NCBI RefSeq assembly: GCF_003334405.1
Contig: NZ_QOWM01000008.1
Length of the DNA stretch: 64,000 nucleotides
Reading direction: 5' to 3' (one strand)
Origin: Escherichia coli
GTDB taxonomy: Bacteria; Pseudomonadota; Gammaproteobacteria; Enterobacterales; Enterobacteriaceae
The translations under genes and the position numbers were made by a program. Position 1 is the first letter of the stretch. Each line of letters begins with the position of its first letter. Below are positions 18,675 to 19,439 of this stretch, piece by piece. The notes below the pieces were generated by a model that was not told the origin of the DNA, searched no databases, and saw only the letters and a program-made list of their open reading frames with translations.

Positions 18675-19325
18675 ATGGTGGTGGGGGAAGGATTACTCAG
18701 CGCTGCGCGCTTCGCCCTTCGGGTCGTTGCCTGCGGCAACGCTCTCTCGCTGACGCTCGAGCCGAACCTTAGTCGAAGCTTCTCATCCTTCCCCGCATGG
18801 GCAGAATATTTGATTGCGGATTCGCTTGAGAGTTCAGGGACTTTTGAAAGTGATGGTGGTGGGGGAAGGATTACTCAGCGCTGCGCGCTTCGCCCTTCGG
18901 GTCGTTGCCTGCGGCAACGCTCTCTCGCTGGCGCTCGAGTCGAACCTTGGTCGAAGCTTCTCATCCTTCCCCGCATGGGCAGAATATTTAATTGCGGATT
19001 CGTTGGGAAGTTCAGGGACTTTTGAAAGTGATGGTGGTGGGGGAAGGATTCGAACCTTCGAAGTCGATGACGGCAGATTTACAGTCTGCTCCCTTTGGCC
19101 GCTCGGGAACCCCACCAGGGGTAATTCAAATTTTGAGGTAATGCTTGAGATGGTGGTGGGGGAAGGATTATTCGTCGCTTCGCTCCTCACCCTTCGGGCC
19201 GTTGCCTGTGGCAACGTTCTCTCGCTTTCGCTCGAATCGAACCTTAGTCGAAGGTTCTCACCCTTCCCCGATGAGTGCAAACTTTCACAATCTCACCGAA
19301 GTTACCACATCGCTGTGGTGAATTA
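18675..19325 (-). repeat. rtT: rtT-type 178-bp tandem repeats of the tyrT operon (units start at 18675, 18853, 19031; degenerate copy 19143-19325)
   Basis: Exact 178-bp periodicity; each unit begins with the reverse complement of the tRNA-Tyr 3' end (TGGTGGTGGGGGAAGGATT...). The unit starting at 19031 is tyrV. Confidence 0.85.
19032..19116 (-). tRNA. tyrV: tRNA-Tyr (GUA), 85 nt
   Basis: Reverse complement matches GGTGGGGTTCCCGAGCGGCCAAAGGGAGCAGACTGTAAATCTGCCGTCATCGACTTCGAAGGTTCGAATCCTTCCCCCACCACCA. Confidence 0.95.
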
Positions 19326-19410
19326 TGGTGGTGGGGGAAGGATTCGAACCTTCGAAGTCGATGACGGCAGATTTACAGTCTGCTCCCTTTGGCCGCTCGG
19401 GAACCCCACC
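19326..19410 (-). tRNA. tyrT: tRNA-Tyr (GUA), 85 nt, promoter-proximal copy
   Basis: Same 85-nt tRNA-Tyr sequence on the minus strand. Confidence 0.95.
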
Positions 19411-19439
19411 ACGGGGTAATGCTTTTTACTGGCCTGCTC

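Follow-up and report, generated by a model that had tools for sequence, protein, structure and literature searches.

We analyzed a stretch of 64,000 nucleotides from Escherichia coli (RefSeq assembly GCF_003334405.1, contig NZ_QOWM01000008.1; "the window" below means this whole stretch) in which tandem repeats accompany a pair of tRNA-Tyr genes. The repeat region is the E. coli tyrT-tyrV tRNA-Tyr operon with its tRNA-linked repeats (TLRs, also called RtT units), an identification in which, taken jointly with the proposals on processing, Rho-dependent termination and recombination presented below, we place very high confidence. The finding is real and already known. It was described in 1978, and the TLR family has the tyrT-tyrV repeats as its founding case (Egan & Landy 1978). 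Because the repeats were sequenced at that time, have an Rfam family and are annotated by the NCBI pipeline, they carry little weight as a discovery. The polymorphism of the repeat modules, the lack of conservation of the proposed tpr gene, and the relation of the units to the tRNA T-loop, with its tRNA::RtT hybrids, are nevertheless starting points for asking why Enterobacterales keep a structured RNA on their tRNA-Tyr genes.

In the interval between narI and purU, the elements are arranged on the minus strand in the order tyrT promoter, tyrT, a diverged repeat of 175 nucleotides (nt), tyrV, and two 178-nt repeats (Table 1). Every repeat follows a tRNA gene and has the same orientation (S after tyrT; D1 and D2 after tyrV), which is the location that characterizes TLRs. 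The tRNA genes define a third module, T, which consists of a 34-nt leader and an 85-nt tRNA (119 nt in all), so that the array can be written T-S-T-D-D. All five of its modules close with one 19-mer, AATCCTTCCCCCACCACCA, which is the tRNA 3' end and covers the end of the T-loop, the 3' strand of the T-stem, the 3' strand of the acceptor stem and CCA. This 19-mer matches at 19 of 19 positions in the three repeats and both tRNAs; five copies of its reverse complement are present, two of them at the tRNA ends and the other three at 18676, 18854 and 19151.

The periodicity is equally plain. Tandem Repeats Finder reported a period of 178 with 2.1 copies, 96% matches and a score of 704 at 18670-19050, and a repeat search recovered 178-nt copies at 18670-18847 and 18848-19025 (95%), as well as a 67% copy at 19145-19322, in the interval that separates the two tRNA genes. 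The tRNA genes themselves, with a few flanking bases, form a 91-nt direct repeat with 99% identity. Sharing of the 19-mer and periodicity on this scale are far beyond chance. S and D have cores of 119 nt that are approximately 85% identical, and linkers that cannot be aligned.

A preliminary description of this region, made from the sequence of the window, had placed units with an exact spacing of 178 bp at 18675, 18853 and 19031, and a diverged copy between the two tRNA genes. The motif A+TGGTGGTGGGGGAAGGATT indeed starts at 18675, 18853, 19031, 19150 and 19325; these starts take in one base past CCA, and the exact module boundaries are 18676, 18854, 19032, 19151 and 19326. The positions and the spacing are therefore right to within one base, and the 67% copy, which the Rfam model also recognizes, is the diverged unit that had been described. 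The supposed third unit at 19031, however, is tyrV itself. The distal array therefore comprises two complete 178-nt units, to which the shared 19-mer and about 6 nt are added, and this trailer and 19-mer make up the fractional ".14" in the repeat counts given below. The GC-rich discriminator GCGCCCC and then a 5' leader of about 43 nt can be read in the sequence downstream of the promoter at 19461-19488; promoter and discriminator together are what we take to be the classic tyrT promoter.

Table 1. Features of the tyrT-tyrV region, listed from right to left in the window
Feature	Position	Strand	Basis and remarks
purU	19570-20412	minus	ORF list; name from E. coli genome annotation
tyrT promoter	19461-19488	minus	TTTACA, 16-nt spacer, TATGAT; promoter scan, 10/12 matches plus TG extension
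tyrT, tRNA-Tyr(GTA), promoter-proximal	19326-19410	minus	ARAGORN; Rfam tRNA, 53.4 bits
S module, 175 nt	19151-19325	minus	Linker of 56 nt, 19270-19325; RtT core of 119 nt, 19151-19269; RF00391, 132.9 bits
tyrV leader, 34 nt	19117-19150	minus	Module parsing; the 119-nt T module recurs in other strains read
tyrV, tRNA-Tyr(GTA), identical to tyrT	19032-19116	minus	ARAGORN; 91-nt direct repeat, 99%
D1, first distal 178-nt repeat	18854-19031	minus	C-rich linker (C/G 3.2), 18973-19031; RtT core, 18854-18972; RF00391, 137.5 bits; same as K-12 unit 1
tpr open reading frame, 29 aa, within the RtT core of D1	18875-18964	minus	ORF list; exact match to PRTL_ECOLI
D2, second distal 178-nt repeat, 96% identical to D1	18676-18853	minus	RF00391, 133.8 bits; same as K-12 unit 2
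Trailer TCGCTT past the last CCA	18670-18675	minus	Resembles the D-unit start TCACTT; Tandem Repeats Finder array starts at 18670
narI	17815-18492	plus	ORF list; name from E. coli genome annotation

The Rfam model of RtT, RF00391, matches all three units over its full length (positions 1-130 of 130), with scores far above the gathering threshold of 45 bits (Table 1). A region of 1,151 bp that includes the array is 100% identical to an E. coli chromosome and was matched in all 5,426 complete E. coli genomes, and RefSeq annotation at the matching loci consists of tRNA-Tyr and "RtT sRNA, processed from tyrT transcript". Thus the genes are tyrT and tyrV, as had been proposed, and ARAGORN, Rfam and the 19-mer found in all modules bear out the statement that the repeats carry the tRNA-Tyr 3' end; the Rfam match and the RefSeq label likewise agree with the suggestion that the units encode rtT RNA.

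The closest relative is the K-12 tyrT TLR array, which agrees with the window in locus, in the 178-nt period and in the 19-nt identity to the upstream tRNA 3' end. The D1, D2, S and T modules of the window are base-for-base identical to those of K-12. The difference is one of number: K-12 MG1655 has the array T-S-T-D-D-D, with three full distal units rather than two (3.14 versus 2.14 repeats). According to PMC8144298, TLRs in K-12 have 22 members at ten loci and hold 18-19 bp in common with the upstream tRNA or rRNA 3' end. The RrA, RrB and RrF RNAs of that family, which are linked to 5S rRNA, resemble the tyrT units in that the repeat closes with the final 18 nt of the stable RNA that precedes it, is co-transcribed with that RNA, and has a 3' end made at the repeated processing signal; they differ in having a core sequence of their own and in binding Hfq and CsrA (PMC8144298). 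TLRs of tRNA operons, including those of tyrT, are given there a predicted CsrA-binder score below 0.01. The gene rttR is located in the repeat unit of the tyrT operon in PMC3318445. RtT is not mentioned in the latest version of the CoCoNuT preprint.

Variation in module number among E. coli strains

To survey the population, the complete E. coli genomes mentioned above were searched with S and D units, the D query being a D unit without its 19-mer. The D type occurs in 4,726 of the 5,426 genomes, at 10,071 places, with one to nine copies per genome and a median of 2; it is absent from the other 700 (13%). The S type occurs in 1,922 genomes (35%), at one to five places each. The preliminary description had named two observations that would speak against it, a lack of periodicity and an invariant number of units. 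What was found is the period of 178 and, among these genomes, D units that are absent or number 1-9 and S units that number 1-5. The observation as a whole is confirmed, and its interpretation is partly supported and largely right, with the corrections on the origin model and the encoded peptide that are explained below.

In a second search, the 1.2-kb flanks of the array were joined into one 2.4-kb query, and 60 records were sampled evenly down the ranking. Spans from flank to flank vary in steps of about 178 bp, and the annotated RtT counts among the sampled records are 0, 1, 2, 3, 4, 5 and 8. Genomes whose 2.4-kb flanks are 100% identical to those of the window carry two or four units, versus three in the window, which means that the number of units changes more quickly than point substitutions build up. 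A consideration that counts against this conclusion is that some of the differences could be due to assembly collapse. Such an artifact is argued against by the consistency of the counts within lineages, because K-12 sublines consistently have four units, and O157:H7 strains consistently have three.

We read twelve E. coli arrays in full, and all twelve are concatenations of 119-, 175- and 178-nt modules that end in the 19-mer, with one to three tRNA-Tyr genes at the locus. The arrays (with loci numbered L) include T-T (L003, L118), T-T-D (L004, L007), T-S-T-D (L005), T-T-D5 (L006), T-S3-T-D5 (L002), T-D (L009, L010), and T-T followed by an islet of seven genes in the ST131 strain 5392 (L117), which has no repeat at the locus. 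E. coli EcPF15 (L008) has three tRNA-Tyr genes in the array T-T-D-T-D-D; whole T-D blocks have therefore also been duplicated, which alters tRNA-Tyr gene dosage.

Because all of these changes involve whole modules, we propose that copy number shifts by unequal homologous recombination or slippage between modules, a process that would shift the number of tRNA-Tyr genes as well. Russell et al. reportedly obtained, in 1970, su3 "singlet" derivatives by unequal recombination within the tyrT/tyrV doublet. The natural T-D and T-T-D-T-D-D arrays resemble those events in that whole tRNA modules have been lost or gained. They differ in that we observe standing variation in thousands of natural isolates, and in that repeat modules vary as well as tRNA genes.

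Several other features of the locus were noticed during this survey. The islet of seven genes, of a lipid type, separates narI from the last tRNA or RtT module in EcPF14 (L009/L011) and in ST131 strain 5392; its genes encode a KAS III-like protein, an epimerase, an MBL-fold hydrolase, an F390-synthetase-like protein, a PAP2 phosphatase, a sterol desaturase and an acyl-CoA desaturase. The EcPF14 flank diverges from that of other strains 6 nt past CCA. Integrase-mediated insertion at the tRNA-like 3' end was considered for the islet in these two strains; no integrase gene is annotated in the stretch shown. In 8 of the 60 sampled genomes, the narI and purU flanks are not joined in one place, which this islet would explain (EcPF14 being the one inspected). 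An IS4-family transposase gene is inserted in the narI-RtT intergenic region of E. coli DETEC-P836 (L007, 1086-2285); such an insertion was seen in 4 of the 60 sampled genomes. Finally, 18 matches to the D type are on records labelled as plasmids, and represent either true plasmid copies or mis-assigned chromosomal contigs.

Conserved RNA core and its proposed expression

Homologues were gathered from a collection with one genome per species by using an RtT-specific 20-mer, TAATCCTTCCCCCACCACCA. This 20-mer was found in 105 stretches, and every named organism belongs to Enterobacterales, including Enterobacteriaceae, Yersinia, Serratia, Erwinia, Dickeya, Sodalis, Budvicia and Photorhabdus. A covariance model was trained on eight E. 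coli cores; its structure comprised only the closing helix and a single hairpin, P3 being left unpaired, and it yielded 181 matches in 100 of the 105 loci. The unit is downstream of tRNA-Tyr on the same strand in every locus that is not cut by a contig end, except L028, for which the tRNA is listed after RtT. Two genomic settings occur, namely arrays of the tyrTV type and the space between tyrU and glyT in the thrU-tyrU-glyT-thrT operon. One or two units occupy the latter position in L024, L025, L036, L038, L044, L060, L075, L081 and L087, whose hosts belong to Cedecea, Acerihabitans, Dickeya, Budvicia, Intestinirhabdus and Sodalis or are Yersinia aleksiciae; this operon is a second genomic home of the family.

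The core is closed by a helix in which the 5' segment GGGGAAGGAU pairs with the tRNA-derived 3' segment AUCCUUCCCC, and it contains two internal hairpins, P3 and P4. Among 140 distinct sequences, compensatory changes were observed at six of the six pairs of P4 (core positions 54-59 with 65-70), and at five of the five pairs of P3 in the version predicted by ViennaRNA (34-36 with 49-51, and 39-40 with 45-46). Alignment cells in these hairpins are paired in 94-96%, versus 41-56% when the 3' partners are slid, and none of 500 shuffles reached the observed covariation score. Because both internal hairpins show compensatory changes, the core is, as judged by comparative sequence analysis, a conserved structured RNA. 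The pair counts favour the five-pair P3 over the 2-bp P3 of RF00391. Neither the multibranch P2 of Rfam nor the alternative local hairpins of ViennaRNA show compensatory changes.

Two observations qualify the structural conclusion. The closing helix is invariant and exhibits no covariation, which is neutral evidence, its 3' strand having been fixed by the pattern used to collect homologues. Also, folding stability is only modestly above that of shuffled sequences (z = -1.4 to -2.3), a weak signal that we did not use as evidence of structure.

The array is expected to be transcribed leftward from the tyrT promoter, with the units co-transcribed with the tRNAs. Co-transcription and release of rtT RNA are described in PMC3318445, PMC8144298 and a preprint (bioRxiv 10.1101/2024.07.17.603846). 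Each 19-mer with its trailer (TC.C..) would recreate a tRNA 3'-maturation site, at which the precursor could be cut. Because the module boundaries recreate the tRNA 3' end and trailer, the tRNA 3'-maturation machinery would be expected to cut the precursor at every boundary, into tRNAs and RtT-sized RNAs. For the 5S-linked RrB, PMC8144298 places the 3' end 3 nt past the repeated 18-mer and suggests RNase E as the nuclease.

Linker composition is suggestive of where transcription might end, and is no more than suggestive. The ratio of C to G is 2.7-3.2 in D linkers, at 42-44% GC, and 0.85 in the S linker. The C-rich, G-poor D linkers are candidate Rho entry sites, in which case transcription would end inside the distal array and not between the tRNA genes. 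A Rho site was reportedly found by Küpper et al. in 1978. What we propose about co-transcription, processing at the 19-mers and Rho-dependent termination draws on the literature and on deduction rather than on data from the window. At 18511-18532 is a hairpin whose T-run is on the narI strand only, so that it makes no obvious candidate for intrinsic termination of the tyrT transcript. A REP-like palindromic element lies at about 18555-18610, between this hairpin and the last RtT unit.

Just one function has been claimed for rtT RNA (Bösl & Kersten 1991); it was subsequently assigned to a neighbouring ORF and the claim withdrawn, and no function has become known since then for TLRs of tRNA operons, according to PMC8144298. 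RtT RNA is dispensable in nature, because the repeat-free ST131 and T-T strains exist. These facts raise the alternative that the array is purely a cis-acting 3' region, in which the distal units are a buffer for Rho-dependent termination and processing that shields narI from read-through. Rfam assigns RtT the type "Cis-reg", the D linkers are C-rich and G-poor like rut sites while the S linker between the tRNA genes is not, natural strains free of units are viable and successful (for example, ST131), and, with the withdrawal just mentioned, the sole claim of an RNA function is gone. We nonetheless consider an exclusively cis-acting role to be somewhat unlikely. A mere terminator or spacer does not need a structured core that acquires compensatory changes across Enterobacterales, and units also reside between tRNA genes (S here, and the tyrU-glyT position in other genera), where termination would be harmful.

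Origin of the units and relation to the tRNA T-loop

The sequence CTTCGA(CC)AAGGTTCGA is located directly 5' of an inner core of about 68 nt, and AATCC... directly 3' of it. The former is collinear with the end of the variable arm, the T-stem and the T-loop (...CTTCGAAGGTTCGA) of tRNA-Tyr, which the 19-mer follows directly in the tRNA. The two segments that flank the core are thus contiguous in tRNA-Tyr, where ...CUUCGAAGGUUCGA is joined to AUCCUUCCCCCACCACCA, and the core of about 68 nt therefore sits exactly at the position of the T-loop. To judge from these alignments, an RtT unit looks like the 3' third of tRNA-Tyr with an insertion of about 68 nt in its T-loop. In addition, the 5' stem of RtT, which is the strand that pairs with the 19-mer, matches the reverse complement of the tRNA T-arm and acceptor strand at 19 of 22 positions, and none of 1,000 shuffles was as good.

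Hybrid genes have the same arrangement. In Citrobacter sp. MGH106 (L072, 6949-7076) and Kosakonia oryziphila (L068, 77-204), tRNA-Tyr::RtT hybrids combine a complete 5' part of tRNA-Tyr (two-thirds of the gene), an RtT core at the T-loop position, and a perfect tRNA 3' end. Decayed hybrids were also observed, in several Kosakonia species and in Franconibacter (L054, L030, L100, L092); these have the anticodon GCA, have lost the acceptor 3' strand, and are the first gene after a tyrT-type promoter. Our first conclusion, that no homology to the tRNA extends past the 19-mer, was dropped after partial matches to the model in Kosakonia and Franconibacter and the full hybrids in Citrobacter and Kosakonia were found.

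The insertion model has weaknesses. The collinear match is short, and we estimate the chance of an 8- or 9-mer in a 159-nt body at about 1e-3. When the 5' part of a module (linker and start of the core) was compared with the tRNA in a way that tolerates gaps, 19 of 500 shuffles were as good for D and 2 of 500 for S. The hybrids may represent an ancestral state. A more parsimonious reading is that they arose by deletion between the two AAGGTTCGA copies carried by a tRNA and a neighbouring RtT unit.

The preliminary description had favoured repeated duplication of a module of tRNA plus spacer, with loss of the tRNA body in distal copies. A related alternative is that the units are decayed tRNA-Tyr pseudogenes, produced by such duplications and neutral erosion of the body, in which the 3' end is still recognizable. 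Consistent with decay, the 19-mer is common to all modules, a second collinear tRNA-like segment (CTTCGA..AAGGTTCGA) is present 5' of the core, hybrids exist, and the S linker of E. coli has a weak match to the anticodon and variable arms, with 2 of 500 shuffles as good in the window and 2 of 200 in E. coli E69 (L037). However, ARAGORN and the Rfam tRNA model match only the two true genes and detect no cloverleaf in any unit. RtT bodies without the 19-mer, when locally aligned to the tRNA body, gave no significant similarity (232 and 76 of 1,000 shuffles were as good), and tRNA-body similarity in the linkers of 133 homologues is at chance level, so that a remnant of the anticodon arm is not established. 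Five of the 133 distinct linkers are at or below 10 of 200 shuffles, versus about six or seven expected by chance, and two of these five are real tRNA 5' parts. Moreover, the core of about 68 nt has no counterpart in the tRNA and exhibits compensatory changes throughout the order, which neutral decay would not give. Because neither the bodies nor the linkers have significant similarity to the tRNA body, the units are not, as far as sequence comparison can tell, simply eroded tRNA copies, and we regard decay as unlikely. The duplication model is thus too simple, although it was right that tRNA-derived sequence is involved, and this extends beyond the 19-mer to the collinear segment 5' of the core.

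With respect to what an inserted, structured RNA might do, we note one further idea, which we think quite improbable: RtT may be more than a by-product of processing, namely an ancient RNA, distributed throughout the order, which by virtue of the tRNA-Tyr 3' end that it retains could act in trans, perhaps as a competitor or decoy for the factors by which this end is recognized. Its targets could be maturation RNases, toxins that target tRNA-Tyr, or defence nucleases. If this were true, the hypervariable dosage, from 0 to 8 or more copies per genome, would tune such activity, together with tRNA-Tyr gene number, between lineages.

Coding potential and other features of the window

The preliminary description suggested that the distal units may encode a small basic peptide. 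The reading frame is there: positions 18875-18964 (minus strand) translate to the exact 29-aa Tpr of K-12. The peptide is not conserved, however. Its frame contains stops in D2 (CAA to TAA), in S, in K-12 D3 (CGA to TGA) and in the sole D unit of strain AS19, and in strains without repeat units, the ORF is wholly absent. Of the 140 distinct homologues from other genera, only eight retain an ATG with an ORF of 25 aa or more; the eight peptides part from the Tpr sequence after about ten residues, in line with differences in unit length. The ATG lies within the 10-bp closing helix, and our reading of the sequence finds no spaced Shine-Dalgarno. Given this lack of conservation, tpr most probably arose as a chance ORF within a structured RNA and is not a genuine gene.

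ORFs of 116, 201, 148 and 79 aa are also open across the array, on both strands, and had already been put down to the repeats. That judgment holds. These four ORFs and Tpr have no NCBIfam match, and no coding sequence is annotated in the array in any RefSeq (PGAP) genome inspected. The 178-nt period is 1 modulo 3, the number of units is polymorphic, and some of the long ORFs run antisense through the tRNA genes. For these reasons, the ORFs of 79-201 aa are artifacts. The explanation that the repeats are protein-coding, either for the 29-aa, protamine-like Tpr or for long ORFs on both strands, is therefore highly improbable, notwithstanding the exact K-12 Tpr frame in D1, the open long frames, and the few gene callers that list hypothetical proteins for ORFs of this kind. 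Annotations should probably omit tpr, and should disregard the long ORFs.

Other structured RNAs and a mobile element are found elsewhere in the window. A Trp operon leader (RF00513) at 53557-53650 on the minus strand is ordinary and consistent with the expected E. coli gene order from nar to trp. An IS10-type insertion sequence occupies 640-1970, where it separates two units of the ldr/rdl type I toxin-antitoxin repeat. This element has a transposase ORF of 402 aa (746-1954, plus strand) and a match to the Rfam family RNA-OUT (684-753, minus strand). The rdlD matches on its two sides, at 486-551 and 2359-2424, give a unit spacing of 1873, versus the normal 534-535.

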